Positions 1,718-31,816 of a stretch of DNA of 31,933 nt are shown piece by piece. The notes beneath the pieces are model-generated. The model ran no database searches, was not told the origin of the DNA, and was given only the letters and a program-made list of their open reading frames with translations. Each line of letters starts with the position of its first letter. Position 1 is the first letter of the stretch. The position numbers and the translations under genes were made by a program. Source of the stretch: a virus (lineage: Duplodnaviria; Caudoviricetes); the IMG/VR virus record IMGVR_UViG_3300025276_000119, positions 1-31,933 of that record. One strand, written 5' to 3'.

Positions 1718-1858
1718 TTAGTTTTCTTTTAACTCAGTAAGGATAACATTTAACTCATTAAGGTTAAATGTATGCAAATCTAATTTGTCTTGATTGTTGT
1801 GCGTTTCTTTTATAAGAAAGTTTATTTCTTTAATTAAATCGGGTTTTGTTAGTTTCAT
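1718..1858 (-). CDS. Small hypothetical protein (46 aa, not in ORF track)
   Basis: MKLTKPDLIKEINFLIKETHNNQDKLDLHTFNLNELNVILTELKKN*; first gene after the 1888-1918 promoter, leader aaactaaaaacgATG. Confidence 0.7.
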   Translation of the reverse strand: MKLTKPDLIKEINFLIKETHNNQDKLDLHTFNLNELNVILTELKEN

Positions 1859-1887
1859 CGTTTTTAGTTTTTAGGTTAACAATAAGG

Positions 1888-2221: not shown

Positions 2222-2252
2222 TTCAGAACTAAAAACTTAAAAACTTATAACG

Positions 2253-2522
2253 ATGACAAGAGAGGAGATTTTAATTGAAAAGATTAGACCGATGATATTC
2301 TGTCTATGGAACTCAAACGAGTCTATTAAGGCTGAGCAATTACTAATAGAGGTTACTTACTACCCTAAAGTTTTTATGGGTGATAATTACCCTGAAATAG
2401 AATTTACAATTGAATTAGGAGATGGTACTGTAATACCTAAAGATAAACTATCTAAAACCTTTACTGATATAGTAGATTCTATGGCAAAACATATATATAC
2501 TAGGCTATATAGTATACGCTAG
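2253..2522 (+). CDS. Hypothetical phage protein (89 aa)
   Basis: ORF following promoter and A-rich leader. Confidence 0.7.
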   Translation: MTREEILIEKIRPMIFCLWNSNESIKAEQLLIEVTYYPKVFMGDNYPEIEFTIELGDGTVIPKDKLSKTFTDIVDSMAKHIYTRLYSIR

Positions 2523-3239: not shown

Positions 3240-4015
3240 TGATAGACTTAAACAATGACGAGGAGTACTACGGAGATTTTGACTATACTACAAACTCACA
3301 GTTAGGGTACGTTAAGCGTTCACCTGCTTACTATTGGAAGATGCGTAACGGAGGGAAGATAGACGCTCCTGCACTTAGGTTTGGTGCTTTGGTTCACACG
3401 TTGATACTTGAACCTGAGAAGTACCAAGAGAACTTTGTTGTATTTAATCCTGACGATAGACCTGAACAAGATAAGGGTATGACATCTAAGATTAATAAAG
3501 CTTGGAAGATTAAGTTAGACGAAGAGTGTAAAGATGGTCGCAAGTATTTAATGACTATGGAGCAATATCAGTTAGCTCTTAAACTAAAGAGAAAGCTATA
3601 TAATTGTAAAGAGTTTAAAGAGATTCTTGACAATTGCGAAACAGAAGTCCCTAAGACTTGGTTAGACTTTAACACAATGAGTAAGTGTAAAGGTAAAGCG
3701 GATATAGTAGTTACAGGAGGCGATGTGCTAGTCGATATTAAGACTACTGGTAAAGATGTAGCTGATTTCAGAAAGAGTGCTTACAGGTACGCTTATCACA
3801 GGCAAGCAGCGTTCTATTTAGATGGGTTTAACGCAAAGGAGTTTATCTTTGTAGTGATTGAATCGAACGCACCTCATCAGATTGGTATCTTTAGATGTTC
3901 TGAACACTTTATAGAACAAGGCAGACAAGAGTACATAGAATTACTAGAGAAGAAAAACAAATATTGTCAAACGGTTGTTGAAGCAAACAACCACATAATA
4001 CACGATGAACTATGA
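3239..4015 (+). CDS. RecE/exonuclease VIII-like PD-(D/E)XK nuclease (DUF3799-like)
   Basis: SPAYY, FGALVHTLILEPE, KGKAD..DIKTT and YHRQAAFY motifs. Confidence 0.85.
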   Translation: MIDLNNDEEYYGDFDYTTNSQLGYVKRSPAYYWKMRNGGKIDAPALRFGALVHTLILEPEKYQENFVVFNPDDRPEQDKGMTSKINKAWKIKLDEECKDGRKYLMTMEQYQLALKLKRKLYNCKEFKEILDNCETEVPKTWLDFNTMSKCKGKADIVVTGGDVLVDIKTTGKDVADFRKSAYRYAYHRQAAFYLDGFNAKEFIFVVIESNAPHQIGIFRCSEHFIEQGRQEYIELLEKKNKYCQTVVEANNHIIHDEL

Positions 4016-4428
4016 AGACAACAAAACAATCAAGACAAGGGGTTGATGCTTTAGATGTAGCTTTAAATTTAGTGTCTAAACATTGGGACGTACCAAGGGA
4101 ATTAATCTTAGGTAAGTCAAGAGAATTAAACATTATGAACGCCAGGCACTCAGCAAGGTATTACCTGTGTTCTTTAAATGTATTTACTTTAGCTGAAATT
4201 GGATCTTTAACTAATTGTGACCACGCTACCGTAATCAATAGTCGTAAGAAGTTTAACTACTATTGCCACAGCGATAAAGAGTTTGTTGATATGAAAGCTA
4301 AGTTTAACGGTGATATAGATTTAACTAAGACTGAGATGCTTAGAAATAGTTTAAGAGATGTGTTAAGTAAGCCCTCAATGGTGCAAGAAAAAGTAACCGA
4401 AATAATGTCGATTTATGAAAATAGATAG
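4012..4428 (+). CDS. DnaA C-terminal-like helix-turn-helix protein
   Basis: ILGKSR..IMNARH..TLAEIG..DHATVINS matches the DnaA domain IV pattern. Confidence 0.75.
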   Translation: MKTTKQSRQGVDALDVALNLVSKHWDVPRELILGKSRELNIMNARHSARYYLCSLNVFTLAEIGSLTNCDHATVINSRKKFNYYCHSDKEFVDMKAKFNGDIDLTKTEMLRNSLRDVLSKPSMVQEKVTEIMSIYENR

Positions 4429-5004: not shown

Positions 5005-5014
5005 ATACTAATTG

Positions 5015-5051
5015 ATGGGGGTCGCTTCGTGCGACTCCTATTCTTTTTTTT
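5015..5051 (+). terminator. Intrinsic terminator between SSB and replication initiator
   Basis: atgggggtcgc-ttcgt-gcgactcctat stem followed by T8. Confidence 0.8.
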
Positions 5052-5075
5052 AACTAGAAACTAAAAAAAATTATA

Positions 5076-5708
5076 ATGATGGCTAAACGATTTACGGACA
5101 CCGCTAAGTGGAGCGAAGATTGGTTCTTAGAGATTAAAAACCCACACAAATTATTTTGGATTTACGTTTGTGATAATTGTAATCACGCAGGTATATTTAA
5201 GCCTAATAAGAGAATGTTCGAGTTAATCTTAGGTGCTAGGATTGACATAAATATGTTCTTAGAAGAGATTAATTCCGACAAACAACGTATTTTAGAGCTT
5301 GCCAATGGTAAATGGTACTTAACTAAGTTTATTGAGTTCCAATACGGAGGTAAGCTTAACGAGAATAATAGAGTGCATAAGTCTATCCTGGAGATACTTA
5401 TCGCAAACAACATTACTTGGGAAGAAAAATCTATAGTACCTCAATTAGAGGTGAAGGATTACAAGCCTAAGGTTAATCCTAACATACCTAGCACCATCAA
5501 CGAAGTTATTGACTACTTCAAGCTAAAAGGTAGCTCAAAGATAGAAGGTGAGAAGTTTTACTATTTCTACGAGTCAAAAGATTGGTTAGTAGGGAAAACT
5601 AAAATGAAGAATTGGAAGATGTCAGCTTCGGGATGGATTGCTAGGAATAAAAAAGGTAAGCCTGATTCGGATTATTTAGGTGGTCAACTTCAAGCAATGA
5701 AAAACTAA
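5076..5708 (+). CDS. Putative replication initiator / replisome organiser
   Basis: MAKRFTDT.KW..WF N-terminus, C-terminal FYYFYESKDW.VGK.KMKNWK..A.GW domain, directly upstream of the helicase. Confidence 0.7.
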   Translation: MMAKRFTDTAKWSEDWFLEIKNPHKLFWIYVCDNCNHAGIFKPNKRMFELILGARIDINMFLEEINSDKQRILELANGKWYLTKFIEFQYGGKLNENNRVHKSILEILIANNITWEEKSIVPQLEVKDYKPKVNPNIPSTINEVIDYFKLKGSSKIEGEKFYYFYESKDWLVGKTKMKNWKMSASGWIARNKKGKPDSDYLGGQLQAMKN

Positions 5709-6640
5709 TGGCTTCTTACAGAATAACCTCGAAGCAAGAGGTGAACGACTATTGTAGGAAGATATACACTAAAGGGTACTCTAAAGGACTCTCTACAGGC
5801 ATATCACCACTTGACCCTCACTATACGTTTAGAAAAGGAGAGCTTACTATTATGACTGGGTTTGCCAACATAGGTAAGACCACCTCTCAACTTTTTCTAA
5901 TGATAATGTCAGCTAAACTCTACGGTTGGAAGTGGCTAATGTACTGCCCTGAAAACGAACCTGTAGGTGATTTAATGATTGATATAGCTGAGATGTTTTG
6001 TGGTGGTACTGCCGATAGAGATTTCAACGATAGAATTAATCAAGAAGAGTATCTTAAAGGTATTAATTGGGCTTACGAACACTTTACGGTTCTTACGTTT
6101 GATGAAACACCTACCGTAGAAGATGTGCTAGGAGCATTTCAAGACTATATGCAAGTGACTCCTATCGATGGTGTATCTTTAGACCCACTTAATGATTTAA
6201 AAGCAGGAGAGAAGCAATCTAAGTACGATTACTATTACGACGCTTTAAGTAATATTAGGAGGTTTATTAAAAAGAATAAGATAGCTTTTTACCTTGTGGT
6301 ACACCCAGGAACGGCAGCTAACCGAAGACGAAACGATGATGGTTCTAGACCTGCTCCGAATATGAGCGATGTAGAGTATGGTTCTATGTTTGGTAACAGG
6401 GCAGATAACTTTATTGTGTTTCACCGTAACCCACAATCGGAGCAATGGAATCAAACTGAGGTTCATATACAAAAGGTTAAGTTTCAGAAGTTAGTCGGAG
6501 TTCCTACGCCTGAAACAAGTCCAATCGCTTTGTTTTACCATTATGGTACACGCAGATTTAGGTATTTAAATCAGAACGGAAGTCCAATTGATCCGATTGA
6601 AATGGTAGATAGTAAATTAAAAACTAACGATATATTTTAG
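5708..6640 (+). CDS. SF4 (DnaB/Twinkle-like) replicative helicase
   Basis: GLSTG..LD, Walker A TGFANIGKT, SLDP (Walker B), LVVHP, KVKF motifs. Confidence 0.85.
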   Translation: MASYRITSKQEVNDYCRKIYTKGYSKGLSTGISPLDPHYTFRKGELTIMTGFANIGKTTSQLFLMIMSAKLYGWKWLMYCPENEPVGDLMIDIAEMFCGGTADRDFNDRINQEEYLKGINWAYEHFTVLTFDETPTVEDVLGAFQDYMQVTPIDGVSLDPLNDLKAGEKQSKYDYYYDALSNIRRFIKKNKIAFYLVVHPGTAANRRRNDDGSRPAPNMSDVEYGSMFGNRADNFIVFHRNPQSEQWNQTEVHIQKVKFQKLVGVPTPETSPIALFYHYGTRRFRYLNQNGSPIDPIEMVDSKLKTNDIF

Positions 6641-8771: not shown

Positions 8772-9203
8772 ATGACTAAGAAAGAATACGAAGTATTGGA
8801 TAGGTGGGCGGATCGTTACGATGTAATTTATACACCAACCGAAAGTAAGGTATCGTTTTGGGATTTCACTTACGAGCTTAACGATATTAAGTATTATTGT
8901 GAGATGAAACAACGTAACTTCACTTTGGATTATGCTGTTCAGAATTATACTGACGGTTTACTCCTGGAGATGCACAAGTATGAACGCATCCTAAGAAGAA
9001 CCAAAAACGAAAAAGGCTCACAAGGTCTATACTTCAATTTCTTTAATGATGATAAAGCTTTAGTTTTTAATCTGAATAAATTAAAGATAGATAAATGGCA
9101 ATGGAAGACGATGCCTGAATCTACTGAGTTCTCAAGACGTAGATTTGTTCACAAGTACGTTACCTTTATTGATTATAGTAAAGGAAAATTATTTTATATT
9201 TGA
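8772..9203 (+). CDS. Putative PD-(D/E)XK nuclease-fold protein
   Basis: WD...CEMKQR and LLEMHKY pattern. Confidence 0.55.
   Translation: MTKKEYEVLDRWADRYDVIYTPTESKVSFWDFTYELNDIKYYCEMKQRNFTLDYAVQNYTDGLLLEMHKYERILRRTKNEKGSQGLYFNFFNDDKALVFNLNKLKIDKWQWKTMPESTEFSRRRFVHKYVTFIDYSKGKLFYI
9195..9202 (+). promoter_or_regulatory. -7 promoter element (TATATTTG) upstream of the candidate sRNA
   Basis: TAnnTTTG overlapping the stop of 8772..9203; no ORF lies between it and the next terminator. Confidence 0.55.
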
Positions 9204-9205
9204 GC

Positions 9206-9284
9206 ATTCTGCTATTATCCCCTCGTTATAGCGTTTTTAGTTTCTAGTAAAAAGGATTTCTCTTCGGAGTTGTCCTTTTTTTTT
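9206..9284 (+). ncRNA. Candidate trans-acting antisense small RNA (~80 nt)
   Basis: Promoter element, 5' hairpin (gctat/atagc), single-stranded gtttttagtttctagt complementary to multiple early-gene leaders, then terminator; 5' end approximate. Confidence 0.6.
9249..9284 (+). terminator. Intrinsic terminator
   Basis: aaaaagga..ctc-TTCG-gag..tccttttt plus T run. Confidence 0.75.
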
Positions 9285-9285
9285 A

Positions 9286-9293
9286 TATATTTG
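9286..9293 (+). promoter_or_regulatory. -7 promoter element (TATATTTG) for the 9311/9484 genes
   Basis: TAnnTTTG 17 nt upstream of ATG 9311. Confidence 0.55.
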
Positions 9294-9310
9294 AAAAAAA
9301 CTAAGAAACT

Positions 9311-9487
9311 ATGAACGAAGAAATCGCAAAGCTATTAGAGCAAAACGCATCTAACGTGTGCAATTCAGGCACAAAAAGCAGATTAGATATTGGAGGCGAC
9401 AAGGAAGTAGCAAAAGCCTGGAAGCTAATCCAAAAAGAGATTAAGCGAATTAACCCAAAGTTTTACGAAATAATTAAAGACAGATGA
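9311..9487 (+). CDS. Small hypothetical protein (58 aa, not in ORF track)
   Basis: MNEEIAKLLEQNASNVCNSGTKSRLDIGGDKEVAKAWKLIQKEIKRINPKFYEIIKDR*; ATGA overlap with the next gene. Confidence 0.7.
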   Translation: MNEEIAKLLEQNASNVCNSGTKSRLDIGGDKEVAKAWKLIQKEIKRINPKFYEIIKDR

Positions 9488-11869: not shown

Positions 11870-12205
11870 TTACGATATTTTAACTGTTCCTCTATCATTC
11901 CATAAAAAACCTGCATCTCTTGGCTCTCTTGTTGGTAGACTAGAAACTGTGGTTGCATTATTTAAATTTAAAACATCATCCGATTTATTTTCAACGGATT
12001 TTACTAATATATGAAAGAAAGCTCGAAGTTTTTCCGCTGTAATGTTAGCGTTTTTAGTTTCAAACATATCCTCAATCATATCTAATAACTCAGCTCGTGT
12101 TCTTTTTTCATCACTAGATACAGCGACTTTGGTTAAAGTATTTCTTTTAACTAAAGATTTATATCTATCTCTAATTGATGTTGCTTTGTAATCGTTTTTT
12201 GCCAT
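11870..12205 (-). CDS. Hypothetical virion-associated protein
   Basis: C-terminal LPT..P..AG.LWND.GTVKIS motif seen in phage fibre-type proteins. Confidence 0.6.
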   Translation of the reverse strand: MAKNDYKATSIRDRYKSLVKRNTLTKVAVSSDEKRTRAELLDMIEDMFETKNANITAEKLRAFFHILVKSVENKSDDVLNLNNATTVSSLPTREPRDAGFLWNDRGTVKIS

Positions 12206-19664: not shown

Positions 19665-20029
19665 TTATATTTTATTGAACTTAATTTTATCGTACTTCTC
19701 TAGTACTTTTTGTATGTGTTCTTTTGAAGCTATTTCTTTTTTCGGCTGATACTTTTTGTCCCAAGGAAGAGGTAATATATCTTTAGGTTTAAGATTCTTT
19801 TTAGAGTGAGGTTGCAAACATCCCATTAATATAGTTCTAGTTTGCTCCCATTGGTTCTGTGACATTTGCTCTTGGTGCGTTTTAAAGCCGTTTAAGCGAT
19901 TGTTAAAGGAACGTGGAGTTAAGCCATACAATTCATCGTATGATAGCTCCAACATCCCTAAACCAACCTCTTCTAGCTTATCCCAGTCAATATCTCCCTC
20001 TTCGGAATCTATCTCCTCTCCCTCAACTA
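19665..20029 (-). CDS. Tail assembly chaperone, frameshifted (gpT-like) segment
   Basis: Frame of ORF 19665..19955 stays open back to the slippery site (VVEGEEIDSEEGDIDWDKLEEVGLG-MLELSY); LTPR motif. Confidence 0.8.
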
Positions 20030-20350: not shown

Positions 20351-21109
20351 TTAATACGTTCCTTGAGTTGATACTCCTGTACCTGTTATTGAAACAGAAT
20401 AGGTTGTGTTATCCTCGACTCCTGCATCCATAGACGCACTTGTAACAATTCCTAAACCTTCCCATTTCACGCCTGTATCTCTTTCTGAAAATCTTACCGT
20501 AACTTCGCTACGAGAATTAAGATCATTAAAGAACTCTTTAAAGTCTAAATCAGCGTTAACATCTTGCAAAGCATCCGTAGATAATTCAAAAGACCTAAGT
20601 CCACCCTCATTGTCTTGAAATCCTCCACTATCTTTCGTGGTGGTATCTCTCAAGTCCATATTGAATGAAACAGAAGCAGATGTACTATGTGCGATTGGTT
20701 CGTAGTCGTTATTAGTTTGACCCGATGTAATTACAATAACCTCTATAGCACCTTCATTTATTGTAGCTGTACCATCTGCAAAACTTAAAGTGTTAACGTC
20801 CCCTGGAAAAGTGTTAGTAAAATCTAAATAATAAAAATCACCATCATCTATGATACTACCAGCTCCAGTATAACCATTAGCATTTAATGTAGCTCTTATA
20901 ACGGATAATAATGCAAAGCCGTTATTTGATACTGATAATGTTTCTAACTCAGCGACATTATTTCCTGAACTATCTGTCGTATTTAAAATTTTAACACTAC
21001 CAACACCACTTAAAGGGCTTACTTTTAAAACTCTAATTCTAGTTACTTGAGCTACGTCAGCAGGTGATTTTTTGTAAACCAATAAATCCGATGCGTTTAT
21101 AATTGCCAT
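20351..21109 (-). CDS. Tail tube protein paralogue with ~120-aa inserted domain
   Basis: Shares MAI.NA.D, P.AHSTSAS.S.NMDLRD.TTK.SGG, GGLRS.ELS and DAGVE.NTT.SVS.TGTG with 21134..21541. Confidence 0.85.
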   Translation of the reverse strand: MAIINASDLLVYKKSPADVAQVTRIRVLKVSPLSGVGSVKILNTTDSSGNNVAELETLSVSNNGFALLSVIRATLNANGYTGAGSIIDDGDFYYLDFTNTFPGDVNTLSFADGTATINEGAIEVIVITSGQTNNDYEPIAHSTSASVSFNMDLRDTTTKDSGGFQDNEGGLRSFELSTDALQDVNADLDFKEFFNDLNSRSEVTVRFSERDTGVKWEGLGIVTSASMDAGVEDNTTYSVSITGTGVSTQGTY

Positions 21110-21133
21110 AATTAATGGATTTAAAAGTTAATA

Positions 21134-21541
21134 CTATACGTTTTGGAACAACTCTCCTGTACCTGTTAAAGAAACAGAGAACGTAGTATTTTCTTCTACA
21201 CCTGCATCTATTGAAATAGAAGTTATAAAGGCGTTACCTGTATATACCATACCTGTAGCACTAAATTCTATAGCTACGGCTGTTCTTGCGTTCCAAGCTG
21301 TCCATAACTCAAGTATGTCAGCAGAACCTGCATCGGTTGCTATATCTACAAAAGAATCTCCACTTAATTCGTAAGAACGTAAGCCACCTAAGTTATCTTG
21401 CCATCCTCCTGATGATTTAGTTGTTGAATCTCTTAAATCCATATTCATAGAAATAGAAGCCGATGTAGAGTGAGCTACAGGAACTAAAGACCCTCCAACT
21501 GTTACTTTAAGAACTACGTCTGTTGCGTTTAAAATTGCCAT
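21134..21541 (-). CDS. Major tail tube protein
   Basis: D.TTK.SGGW..L.GLRS..LSGD, YTG.AFITSIS, FSVSLTGTGEL. Confidence 0.88.
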   Translation of the reverse strand: MAILNATDVVLKVTVGGSLVPVAHSTSASISMNMDLRDSTTKSSGGWQDNLGGLRSYELSGDSFVDIATDAGSADILELWTAWNARTAVAIEFSATGMVYTGNAFITSISIDAGVEENTTFSVSLTGTGELFQNV

Positions 21542-26755: not shown

Positions 26756-27259
26756 CTAAATTTTTGAACTATTTTTAATTAATTTATAAGAAAGCCCTAT
26801 AAGTCTATGTATGTAGCTTGGACTATAACCCTTAATTAATGATATTTCTTGTATTTTTAGACCATATTCGAACCTTAAGTACATAACATCTCTCATTCCT
26901 TTGTGCTTTAAATTACTTAAATTATACCAAAGCAAGTCTGGCAATATATCGTAATTATCGCTTTTAAGGTGGTTTTTAGGCTCTCTAAGACGATAAGTGT
27001 TGTGAAAGGGACTCGATGTACTAATTACTTGATTGGTGACCACACGAGCCACGAAATACTCAAATTGGTTTGTTTCGTGCAAAGACTCAATCGTTTCATC
27101 CATTTGAGTCAGTAGAATTAGGTTTATATCTTGAATAAGGTCGTCTAAGAGGTGAATGTCGTTGTTGTTAGACAATACACTTGAGCAAATTGCTCTAATA
27201 CTTCCTTGATTGGAGGTGATTATTTCTTCTTTAGATAAAGAAAATCTCTTTGCTATCAT
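26756..27259 (-). CDS. Sigma-70/ECF-like transcription factor
   Basis: DDLIQD..L.L (region 2-like), RDVMYLRFEYGLKIQEIS..GYS...I (region 4 HTH-like); start uncertain (ATG 27259 or GTG 27271). Confidence 0.6.
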   Translation of the reverse strand: MIAKRFSLSKEEIITSNQGSIRAICSSVLSNNNDIHLLDDLIQDINLILLTQMDETIESLHETNQFEYFVARVVTNQVISTSSPFHNTYRLREPKNHLKSDNYDILPDLLWYNLSNLKHKGMRDVMYLRFEYGLKIQEISLIKGYSPSYIHRLIGLSYKLIKNSSKI

Positions 27260-28814
27260 ATCCTGTTCCACCTTGATTCTTGTTTTTCATCGACTCGCTT
27301 AATCCCATTAACACAGATACTATACCGTCAATTTTGTCGTTTGATTTTGCCTTATTAGGCTTTACGTTTCCTGCTGGATCTTCGGTTAACACTACGTTAG
27401 ACATCATCCATCTTAGCACAGGGTTTCCTGCGTGACGAATGTTTCCACTTAAAATTAGTGTTTCGAACTCTTTGGTAGCAGGTGACATAGTTCTGTAACC
27501 TTGACCTACAGGAATCATTGGGCATCCCTCTTCTGTAAGGTCGATTACGATTTGAGAAGCGTTCCATCTATCGTAGGCTATCATTTTAATATCGTATAAT
27601 TCGCTTAAATCACGAATCTTTTGCTTTATGTAGTTGTAATCGCAAACGTCACCAGGAGTAAAGATTACGTGACCTTGCCTGTGCCACTTAACGTAATCTA
27701 CTTTATCTCGTTCTGAGCGTTTGTAAGCGTTCTCTTCTGGTATAAAAAAGAACGGTAATATGTCGTAGCCATCGTTATCGTCAGGAAACAAAAGCGATAA
27801 ACAAGTAACATCTCGTGTAGAAGCTAAATCTAAACCTCCGTAACAAGCTCTTCCTTTAAGGTAAGCTTCATTTACAGGTACATCACCCTCCATCCACTTA
27901 TCGTCACTAATAAATTTAGTTTCGTTAGCAACCCATTGATTTAGGTGCAATCTACGGAAAGTGTTTTCGTATGAAGGTTCGTTTTTAGCTTTAACCGATT
28001 GTTGTTGCATATACTCTTCGGTGATGATAGTACCGAAGCCTGGGTTGGCTTTCTTTTGCACCTCAACGTCAAAGATGTCATCGTCTTTACCTGCCTCATA
28101 CACAACGCCTAAGAATGAGTCGTCTTCGATAGTACCCTCAATAAGTTTCTTCGCATAATCGTAAAGCTCCTTACAAATGTGGTCTTTTTGATGACCTGCA
28201 CCTGCTGTGGTAATACCAAGCATAAGAGGCTCTTTCCTTGCTCCCATAGAAGTAAGTAAAACATCATATAAATCTCTGTTTTTGTGAGAGTGTATCTCAT
28301 CAAGTAAACAACAAGAAAGGTTTAGTCCGTGCTTAGTATCTGCGTCTGCTGAGATTACTTTGTAGTACGATCCAACTTTATCGTAAGTAATTGAATCTCT
28401 GTAAGTACCTGCTCGTTTAAGTAACTCAGGATTTTGTAAAACCATTTGCTTTGCGATAGAGAACGATAATCTAGCTTGTTCTTTATCGGCTGCTGCGGAA
28501 ACAATCTCAGCTCCTTTCTCTCCATCTGAAAAAAGCATATAGAGAGCGATACCAACCATTAAATTAGTCTTACCATTCTTACGAGGTATAAACACAAAGC
28601 ATTGTCTAAATCGTCTTAATTTGGTCTTCTTAGATTTCCAACCGAATAGAGGGCGGATAATGTCATCCTTTTGCCACTCTTCAAGTATAAACTTCTGACC
28701 TGCTAAATCGCCTTTAACGTGTTGACAGAACATCTCGATAAAGTCTACAGCTCTCTTGGCTGACTTCTCATCGAAATACCATTTGGTTTCGTCAATGTGT
28801 TTAAGGTTATTCAT
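27231..28814 (-). CDS. terL: Terminase large subunit
   Basis: LEEWQ, Walker A PRKNGKT, LLDEIH, ITTAG, GGLDLA, YDRWNA, KIDG. Confidence 0.96.
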   Translation of the reverse strand: MNNLKHIDETKWYFDEKSAKRAVDFIEMFCQHVKGDLAGQKFILEEWQKDDIIRPLFGWKSKKTKLRRFRQCFVFIPRKNGKTNLMVGIALYMLFSDGEKGAEIVSAAADKEQARLSFSIAKQMVLQNPELLKRAGTYRDSITYDKVGSYYKVISADADTKHGLNLSCCLLDEIHSHKNRDLYDVLLTSMGARKEPLMLGITTAGAGHQKDHICKELYDYAKKLIEGTIEDDSFLGVVYEAGKDDDIFDVEVQKKANPGFGTIITEEYMQQQSVKAKNEPSYENTFRRLHLNQWVANETKFISDDKWMEGDVPVNEAYLKGRACYGGLDLASTRDVTCLSLLFPDDNDGYDILPFFFIPEENAYKRSERDKVDYVKWHRQGHVIFTPGDVCDYNYIKQKIRDLSELYDIKMIAYDRWNASQIVIDLTEEGCPMIPVGQGYRTMSPATKEFETLILSGNIRHAGNPVLRWMMSNVVLTEDPAGNVKPNKAKSNDKIDGIVSVLMGLSESMKNKNQGGTGYDSKEIFFI

Positions 28815-29544: not shown

Positions 29545-29640
29545 AAGAAAGAAAAAAGTAAAACAAAAAAGAAAGAACTATCCTTATCCTTATCCTTATC
29601 CTTGTCTATAGGGGTATCGTTGACCCCTAATTGACCCCTA
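29545..29640. repeat. Repeat cluster, candidate replication origin
   Basis: A-rich tract, (TATCCT)x4 at 29579-29602, TTGACCCCTA x2 (29620, 29631) and inverted TAGGGGT at 29609. Confidence 0.55.
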
Positions 29641-29741
29641 AAATGTTATTTATTGATAATGAGATGTTTAAGCCTTAATTCGTGTATTTTGGTCAAAATT
29701 TATATGGGGCTAAGAAATTTTACAAACAAATTAACATTTAC

Positions 29742-29772
29742 TTGTGGATTAACAAATGTTGATGTACATTTG
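29742..29772 (+). promoter_or_regulatory. Bacteroidota-type promoter (TTG, 20 nt, TACATTTG)
   Basis: Consensus and spacing, upstream of the leader agaaactaaaaac and ATG 29797. Confidence 0.75.
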
Positions 29773-29796
29773 CCTTAAGAAACTAAAAACAGAACT

Positions 29797-29964
29797 ATGA
29801 AATCAAAAGAAAAATACTTAACTTCGTTAGCAGATATTAAGGTTAAAATTGTAGACGAAAAAGGATTTGTTGTAGGAGATAATACAATGTTAGTTTTAGG
29901 ACTTCAATATGGTACTTTATACGATAAAAATGCTTACAAAGGTAAGCGTAAAGAAAAAGAGTAA
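29797..29964 (+). CDS. Small hypothetical protein (55 aa, not in ORF track)
   Basis: MKSKEKYLTSLADIKVKIVDEKGFVVGDNTMLVLGLQYGTLYDKNAYKGKRKEKE*; TAATG overlap with the next ORF. Confidence 0.7.
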   Translation: MKSKEKYLTSLADIKVKIVDEKGFVVGDNTMLVLGLQYGTLYDKNAYKGKRKEKE

Positions 29965-30152: not shown

Positions 30153-30400
30153 GTGAGCAAGCCACTTGAACGCTGCACTAAACCACCCCAAGCTTTAATC
30201 CAAATACAGGATTAGGTGTATTAAATTTTTAGGGGTGGTACTTATACGAGAGCTTCCTGCGTGAGTGGAGCATATAGTGAAAAGTCCTGCTCGTAGGAAA
30301 TAGGCAGGCAAATACAGGCGAGATGTAAAGATCGATTTACTTTACTTTTGTTAATACCGAAAAGTAAGGTGTGTTTGAGAAAATTTCACACCTTACTCTA
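30151..30400 (+). ncRNA. Candidate structured RNA / leader
   Basis: At least six stems in ~250 nt of non-coding, locally GC-richer sequence. Confidence 0.45.
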
Positions 30401-31555: not shown

Positions 31556-31816
31556 ATGTTGTATTTATTTAGTTACGAAGATTCAGAGTTAGACGATAAG
31601 GATTTAATAGTTTACTTTACTGTAAGAGGTTTTGATGAAGTTAGAGATTTCACCATTAAAAACTTTGTACCAAAAGATTATGCTCTTGGTTACAATGGAG
31701 ATAATCAAGAAGAAATTTACGATTACTACCCACAAGACTGGTTTGAAGAAACTGTGACAAAGGAAGATTTGAAACAGATCGTTAAAGATTACGAAAATAA
31801 GATAAAACTAAATTGA
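31556..31816 (+). CDS. Hypothetical acidic protein (86 aa)
   Basis: Last ORF of the rightward arm. Confidence 0.7.
   Translation: MLYLFSYEDSELDDKDLIVYFTVRGFDEVRDFTIKNFVPKDYALGYNGDNQEEIYDYYPQDWFEETVTKEDLKQIVKDYENKIKLN

Follow-up and report, generated by a model that had tools for sequence, protein, structure and literature searches.

Between a 143-aa gene (8772–9203, plus strand) and the gene starting at 9311, the window (the whole stretch of DNA analysed; 31,933 nucleotides, a whole 31.9-kb virus record) carries a compact plus-strand unit at 9195–9284. It opens with a -7 promoter motif TATATTTG (9195–9202; TAnnTTTG, Bacteroidota sigma-ABfr type), which overlaps the Tyr-Ile-stop codons of the upstream gene. 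A predicted non-coding small RNA of ~78 nt follows (9207–9284, plus strand; start at ~9207 predicted; assignment by fold and conservation). Its parts, in fold order, are a small 5' hairpin with an anti-start-codon part (9211–9232; by fold, and seen in the window's clade), an open U-rich seed that is single-stranded and has its complement in the leader tag ACTAGAAACTAAAAA (9233–9248; unpaired probability mostly 0.6–0.9 or higher), and an intrinsic terminator with a cUUCGg loop and nine U (9249–9284; by fold, and by plus-strand polarity in relatives). The core of the unit is 9223–9248. Neither strand has an ORF running across the unit, and the fold of the predicted RNA has a z of -4.0, with 0/200 shuffles as good. 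Directly past the terminator lies a second -7 motif TATATTTG (9286–9293, plus strand), a feature absent from the original prediction; it would drive genes 9311 and 9484, and would close the unit off from the genes downstream. A similar motif past the terminator was judged by eye to be present in many relatives. The gene at 8772–9203, whose last codons carry the first promoter motif, is a usual but dispensable neighbour of the unit and gave no family match in PHROGs, Pfam or NCBIfam.

The original prediction described this stretch as a candidate phage small RNA antisense to the translation starts of many early and replication genes; every string and coordinate that it gave is present in the sequence. 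AAACTAAAAA occurs in eight copies in the window versus 0.85 expected (0/100 shuffles reach eight): six in leaders of early-class genes, one inverted in the unit and one inside a late gene. An exact match of 16 nt (12046–12061, minus strand), the longest to the unit and one that the original prediction missed, lies within a late coding region. As a sponge site in late gene 12205 this match was dropped, as it is not kept in nine distinct readable homologous stretches. Searched against Rfam, the window gave one unrelated sub-threshold match only (E up to 1), and five relatives gave none. A search for RNA data sets containing the stretch returned none, and two unlabelled and two RNA contig sets, out of seven listed runs, gave no RNA coverage, the two RNA sets being ones without the phage.

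The record encodes a HK97-like head, a non-contractile-type tail, an exonuclease, an SSB and a DnaB-like helicase. Early and late labels of its genes are our own assignment from strand and module. As had been noted before, no CI or integrase is recognisable: integrase and repressor families were found neither among 55 window proteins with PHROGs nor among 26 with Pfam, and integrase, resolvase and HTH_3 were absent in 5/5 long relatives, each of them incomplete (rated 38–83% complete). TAnnTTTG motifs stand before first genes at 2214, 1895 (minus strand), 29765, 9286 and 29532 (minus strand); this promoter type lies outside the coverage of the sigma-70 promoter scan. TAnnTTTG is the Bacteroidota -7 consensus (sigma-ABfr type), with RNA starting 4–5 nt downstream (PMC6847099), which makes Bacteroidota the likely host phylum. 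BLAST against cultured phages, with the unit region and with the initiator (gene 5076, described below), returned no close relative; the genome collection yielded no close integrated relative, and a close initiator in 1/52 loci (L212, a 25.9-kb contig in a bin).

Several other features of the window were recorded. A sigma-70/ECF-like protein is encoded between terminase and portal (26756–27271, minus strand; TIGR02937, E 2.7e-7, below the cut-off) and is possibly a late-gene regulator. The genes at 28814 and 29048 (minus strand), for the terminase large subunit and a preceding 76-aa product, begin with the same 15 bases (MNNLK), which suggests an insertion with a duplicated start. Two divergent intergenic regions (29570–29645 and 2036–2125) contain short repeats (CCTTAT and GACCCC units; CCCTCCCCTA twice), possibly origin or packaging sites. 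A GC-richer stretch of ~190 nt without ORF (30153–30345) folds at -39 kcal/mol over 30180–30345 and is followed by a promoter motif at 30343; it has no Rfam match. Two tandem genes (20351–21541, minus strand) both match the same major tail protein family.

Conservation of the unit was followed in 98 sequences (the window and L001–L097). The promoter motif, a 40–55-nt U-rich anti-leader stretch and a plus-strand terminator were present in 89/89 viral loci with the upstream gene. The unit is also kept in four loci without that gene (L038, L039, L040, L043; from the cassette scan), so that promoter motif and terminator are found in 93/93 scored loci. These represent 86 distinct contigs (seven fetched twice), 52 distinct units and 46 distinct 5' parts (types); the distant L054–L058 (initiator identity 26–37%), with neither the upstream gene nor a convincing unit, were left out. 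Among metagenome loci (79 examined, one truncated; L321 left out as probably the window itself) the unit was present in 78/78 usable ones, with 11 new 5' parts, this set overlapping the viral set heavily.

Under the promoter motif the codons TAT ATT TGA are fixed in 43/43 types against background frequencies of 61%, 40% and 15%, respectively; synonymous choices common elsewhere occur there in none of these types. In 46/46 types the plus-strand form of the terminator is the more stable one, and its U-run is always at least seven long. The anti-AUG trinucleotide CAT is present in 44/46 types versus 16 expected; the exceptions, the window and L028, both read CGT there, so that pairing to AUG remains possible through a G-U pair. 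No conserved antisense ORF was found, the minus-strand ORFs that start from these ATGs being 1–47 aa long and in varying frames. Because the types are related, these conservation counts are not independent of one another. In L323, 28/429 bases differ in the upstream gene and 0/140 from its last codons onward. The promoter-seed-terminator cassette anticipated for relatives is borne out in this comparison, as a stand-alone unit of plus-strand polarity that is, on these grounds, real and under selection. A decayed minus-strand gene leader, named beforehand as one finding that would speak against a small RNA, is not what the lack of a conserved frame and the plus-strand terminators indicate.

In three relatives (L038, L043, L049) the units carry two or three consecutive segments of the anti-leader or anti-AUG kind, suggesting two seeds. 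Pattern scans for look-alike units found a terminator in 40/114 and in 14/57 matches; the scans are noisy, so the breadth of the unit outside the family is a lead only. Units with promoter, anti-leader stretch with CAT, and terminator were seen in phage contigs without the 8772 gene (L138, L108, L104, L113, L119, L139, L296, L209). Two of these have a gene that resembles an initiator when judged by eye, a 223-aa gene in L138 that ranks second among the starts and a 259-aa gene in L139 that ranks fourth.

The main predicted target in the window is the start region of gene 5076–5708 (5053–5084, plus strand), where the unit matches 5053–5067 (15/15) and 5072–5079; the predicted pairing has a 15-nt perfect stretch and a bulged extension. 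The gene encodes a predicted replication initiator/replisome organizer of 210 aa, located directly before the DnaB-like helicase gene 5708–6640 (PHROGs). The protein has no Pfam or NCBIfam match. Its AlphaFold model (pLDDT 78.5, pTM 0.50) matches viral proteins annotated as replication initiator, replisome organizer, DnaD-domain and Lin1244/Lin1753-like (E 4.5e-6 to 9.3e-4); a PDB fold search with the model gave nothing at E 0.001 or better, matches, including Rep initiators, lying at E > 0.4. The assignment as initiator is accordingly a prediction, and the name is used below in that sense. A terminator-like hairpin with U-run precedes the initiator leader directly (5014–5050, plus strand; by sequence and fold), and a hairpin of -8 kcal/mol or better stands before this leader in 29/40 loci. 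The U-run of 5014–5050 is also able to pair with the A-run of the leader. With such a hairpin in front, expression of initiator and helicase would depend on read-through or antitermination, an arrangement that would fit a dose-limited gene. A small protein, the greater part of which is a DnaA C-terminal HTH domain (PF08299, E 4e-11), is encoded at 4012–4428, and the start of this gene is the top predicted target in three relatives.

Pairing energies of the 26-nt core at gene starts were compared with those of 300 dinucleotide shuffles. Shuffles pairing as well as the core numbered 0/300 at 5076, 0/300 at 2253, 4/300 at 29797, 7/300 at 1858 and 10/300 at 31556; 34/300 at 1706, 36/300 at 9311, 95/300 at 712, 116/300 at 1048 and 123/300 at 2617. 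A p of 0.05 or better was reached by 5/28 early and 1/27 late starts; the early mean pairing was reached by 11/300 shuffles, the late mean by 197/300. The late start at 19955 beats the shuffles (4/300 as good) yet is poorly accessible. Net energies with opening costs included, calculated for ten starts (kcal/mol), were -16.5 for 2253, -15.8 for 5076, -12.4 for 29797, -10.8 for 9311, -10.1 for 1858, -9.0 for 1706 (in the coding part), -6.2 for 712, -5.0 for 19955, -4.9 for 2617 and -2.6 for 1048. If accessibility is ignored, some coding stretches equal the best starts in pairing with the unit.

After the initiator, the best accessible targets are promoter-proximal. The second predicted target is the start of gene 2253 (2227–2270, plus strand; matches at 2227–2236 and 2246–2253), the first gene after the promoter motif at 2214. 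Weaker predicted targets are the starts of gene 29797 (29778–29802, plus strand; match at 29778–29790), first after the motif at 29765, and of gene 1858 (1850–1875, minus strand; match at 1859–1870), first after the motif at 1895. The start of gene 9311 (9299–9320, plus strand), which adjoins the unit and did not figure in the original prediction, is a possible target by its net energy, with a shuffle result within chance. The further string matches at 2605–2614 (gene 2617), 1715–1724 (gene 1706) and 724–733 (gene 712) were confirmed as strings. Among the matches originally listed, those at 5076, 2253, 29797 and 1858 thus exceed chance, and those at 1706, 712, 1048 and 2617 do not. Silencing of the whole early class, as first proposed, is overstated, since only the five early starts counted above beat the shuffles; early genes other than the initiator are also without overall covariation (see below). 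The target set is the initiator and promoter-proximal genes, not the whole early class.

Seeds of the relatives fall into the dialects ACTAAAA, ACCTAAA and ACCAAA (written in target sense), and the initiator leader is of the same dialect in 7/7, 11/12 and 24/32 pairs, respectively. On the initiator start, own RNA gives -24.3 and foreign RNA -16.4 kcal/mol (52 pairs; 0/10,000 permutations, uncorrected for kinship); in L074, on a long branch and with a unique seed, the own initiator gives -28.0 against -13.1 for others. The own-versus-foreign scan took in 661 starts out of 1,435 ORFs (795 with a window homologue), foreign being the mean of eight other-dialect RNAs. Own RNA was better at 38/38 initiator starts, at 24/27 for 2253 and at 4/4 loci for 9311; over 198 late starts the difference was +0.4 kcal/mol. 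Ranked among the genes of its locus, the initiator start comes first in 19/37 and in the top three in 31/37 (1.5 firsts expected), with poor ranks in L085 (21/30), L095 (7/20) and L061 (6/23); in four new metagenome types with an initiator the ranks are 1, 1, 2 and 4. The longest exact match to the unit falls in a start region in 26/39 loci, and 13 of those are the initiator's.

Kinship was taken into account with a tree of initiator and helicase (39 rows, four dialect changes), on which 17 pairs on separate paths were of our own choosing. When RNAs were swapped within these tree-independent pairs, own RNA was better at the initiator start in 10, worse in 3 and tied in 4 (sign test p 0.046; Wilcoxon p 0.003). 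A shorter stretch around the start gave 12 better and 2 worse (n=16). Among other starts, the exonuclease gave 9 for and 0 against of 11, and 2253 gave 6 for and 1 against of 8. Early starts other than the initiator gave 59 for and 46 against of 133, and late starts 17 for and 10 against of 35, both with a mean near zero. Covariation of seed and leader, which had been expected for the early leaders generally, is therefore found with the initiator leader and is lacking overall for the other early genes. A compensatory change at 2253 between the window and its nearest clade was also expected; the swap between the window and L005 was neutral. The RNA of L005 outpairs the window's own RNA at the window's 5076 and 2253 starts.

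Units were aligned by identity alone to 143 early starts in 31 loci, and the mismatches were tallied. Those G-U-compatible for a plus-strand RNA outnumber the mirror kind (254 vs 133; 24 loci positive, 3 negative, 4 zero). The non-wobble pair C/A vs A/C is skewed too (158 vs 66), so that G-richness of the RNA accounts for part of the asymmetry. The covariation could also stem from a leader dialect common to the whole genome, imposed by the host or by homogenisation of repeats.

Architecture, conservation, polarity and covariation with the initiator leader are established by sequence comparison, and on this basis the unit at 9195–9284 is very probably a small RNA gene. As to its role, we consider it probable that the ~78-nt RNA acts in trans, mainly on the start of its own phage's initiator and more weakly on the first genes of early units, as a delayed negative feedback. 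The RNA would be transcribed by the host RNA polymerase from a promoter of the type that serves the early genes, and its terminator hairpin would stabilise it and let it build up. The open U/G-rich seed would dock on the A-rich leader needed for initiation in Bacteroidota, a process that relies on adenines at positions -3, -6, -12 and -13 upstream of the start (PMC6847099). Pairing extended over the AUG would then block 30S loading at the initiator start, and less strongly at the first genes of early units. Initiator dose would be capped and early expression wound down, and late leaders would be spared. Such feedback may time a lytic cycle, maintain a carrier state or keep out kin; the early-to-late switch and the dormancy repressor of the original prediction fit the comparisons equally.

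A real RNA could instead have mainly foreign targets: either co-infecting kin, through their initiator and early leaders (which would give superinfection exclusion or a carrier state of the resident phage), or host mRNAs whose leaders are similar; we regard this as unlikely. The leader tag is common to clade kin, so the RNA would hit kin equally, and the stronger pairing of the L005 RNA at the window's starts agrees with such an aim, as do several units (L049 and L038) that resemble patchworks of two or three generic start regions. A precedent is c4 RNA, which mediates heteroimmunity between P1 and P7 (PMC12197685). The own-genome preference in the independent pairs fits kin exclusion and not a host target. 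Further points against this reading are that tag plus ATG is no commoner than its reversed control in four Bacteroidota genomes that are not the host's (9 vs 8, 13 vs 17, 24 vs 25, 17 vs 15), that an integrase was found neither in the window nor in 5/5 incomplete relatives, and that a single genome-collection locus out of 52 has a close initiator.

It is rather improbable that the unit is an inverted copy of a leader repeat beside an ordinary end-of-operon terminator, which homogenisation at the DNA level keeps like the leaders and which has no regulatory role. Leader tags are indeed repeated in each genome (93 copies at most 45 bases from a start, 51 elsewhere and 53 in units), and the promoter motif overlaps coding codons. 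A mere repeat does not account for position and architecture fixed in all scored loci, for synonymous sites under the promoter fixed in 43/43 types, for a unit that outlives loss of the upstream gene, for an anti-AUG kept in 44/46 types without a reading frame, or for the preference for the start of one gene and the wobble-type mismatch bias. It is quite improbable that the long early mRNA carries the unit as a cis-acting tail at its 3' end, which folds back over ~4 kb onto the initiator start once transcription has reached 9248 and shuts off the finished message. The unit is the 3' end of the initiator's operon, on the same strand, and ends at the operon terminator, but a conserved promoter motif stands directly before the anti-leader stretch, and the targets 1858 and 29797 are on other transcription units.

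The tag could also be bound as DNA by a phage regulator, with copies standing after early promoters and an inverted copy after the promoter at 9195. This is very improbable: tags closely follow the promoter motifs at 2214, 29765, 1895 and 9286, and the phage encodes the DnaA-C-terminal-type HTH protein at 4012, but the best match, at 5053, has no promoter motif before it, and the anti-AUG in 44/46 types and the G-U bias would be left unexplained. A live or decayed start of a minus-strand mini-gene, read from late read-through transcripts, is hardly credible: the minus strand does read leader plus ATG in 44/46 types, but its ORFs of 1–47 aa shift frames, the window and L028 are without ATG, no minus-strand promoter motif is near in the window, and terminator polarity is plus in 46/46.

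The trans-acting small RNA that we favour has partial counterparts among known systems. FopS and GibS of Bacteroides thetaiotaomicron are alike in their single-stranded 5' seed, intrinsic terminator, several targets and pairing in the initiation region without Shine-Dalgarno sequence; FopS RNAs of Bacteroides repress by pairing to or covering start regions, and FopS has a sigma-ABfr promoter, the type of the unit's motif (PMC11697453). They are host-encoded and multicopy and act on sugar-uptake operons (PMC11697453); binding to RbpB-type proteins and susC-type targets mark the class. The unit, in contrast, is single-copy, lies in a phage, has no Rfam match and has a seed that tracks the phage's own initiator leader. 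Among plasmid copy-number antisense RNAs, CopA of R1 and RNAI of pT181 limit synthesis of a replication initiator; each is encoded in cis, opposite the rep leader, and complementary to it throughout. The RNA described here is likewise predicted to limit an initiator, but is trans-encoded, 4.1 kb away, and mismatched.

Among phage RNAs, c4 of P1/P7 acts near the ribosome-binding site of its own phage's genes, with sequence differences giving kin specificity; its loops, formed by folding of the RNA, regulate an antirepressor of a temperate phage (PMC12197685). The unit differs in its linear seed, in having the initiator (the gene before the helicase) as main predicted target and in lacking an Rfam match. 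A c4-type setting was not found either: none of the window proteins scanned matched a repressor, antirepressor or integrase, and the five incomplete relatives gave no HTH_3 or integrase. The small RNAs sar (P22), OOP and aQ (lambda), VpdS (VP882) and PreS (lambda) also tune phage development or replication post-transcriptionally; sar, OOP and aQ act on one switch gene each and PreS on host dnaN, and VpdS and PreS work with Hfq (PMC12197685). The unit, for its part, lies 4 kb away from its main predicted target, and its pairing with several starts is imperfect. In its working the unit would resemble FopS/GibS and, in principle, c4, but neither Rfam nor its targets place it with them. The available text of PMC12197685 describes no phage RNA acting on its own initiator, and a literature search over titles and abstract openings (subscription journals mostly outside its reach, supplements not included) found no paper on such an element.

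In the available text of PMC12197685, the targets of phage small RNAs are a single switch gene or genes of the host, from which an own-initiator target in trans would differ. A phage RNA that acts in this manner and co-evolves with a private leader tag would reveal by what means replication is limited, and the early phase ended, in phages that have no recognisable repressor and infect hosts lacking Shine-Dalgarno sites. It is conceivable, if on balance doubtful, that Bacteroidota phages lacking a repressor time their development or a carrier state with one small RNA and a clade-private leader tag, tag and RNA co-diversifying into mutually insensitive groups. If so, a tag on the initiator and on promoter-proximal early genes, read by an RNA, would be an RNA-only counterpart of repressor-operator immunity, and the look-alike units in unrelated contigs (L138, L104, L113, L139, L296) would point to a widespread class. 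The natural cognate and non-cognate pairs of RNA and leader could become orthogonal translation switches for Bacteroidota.
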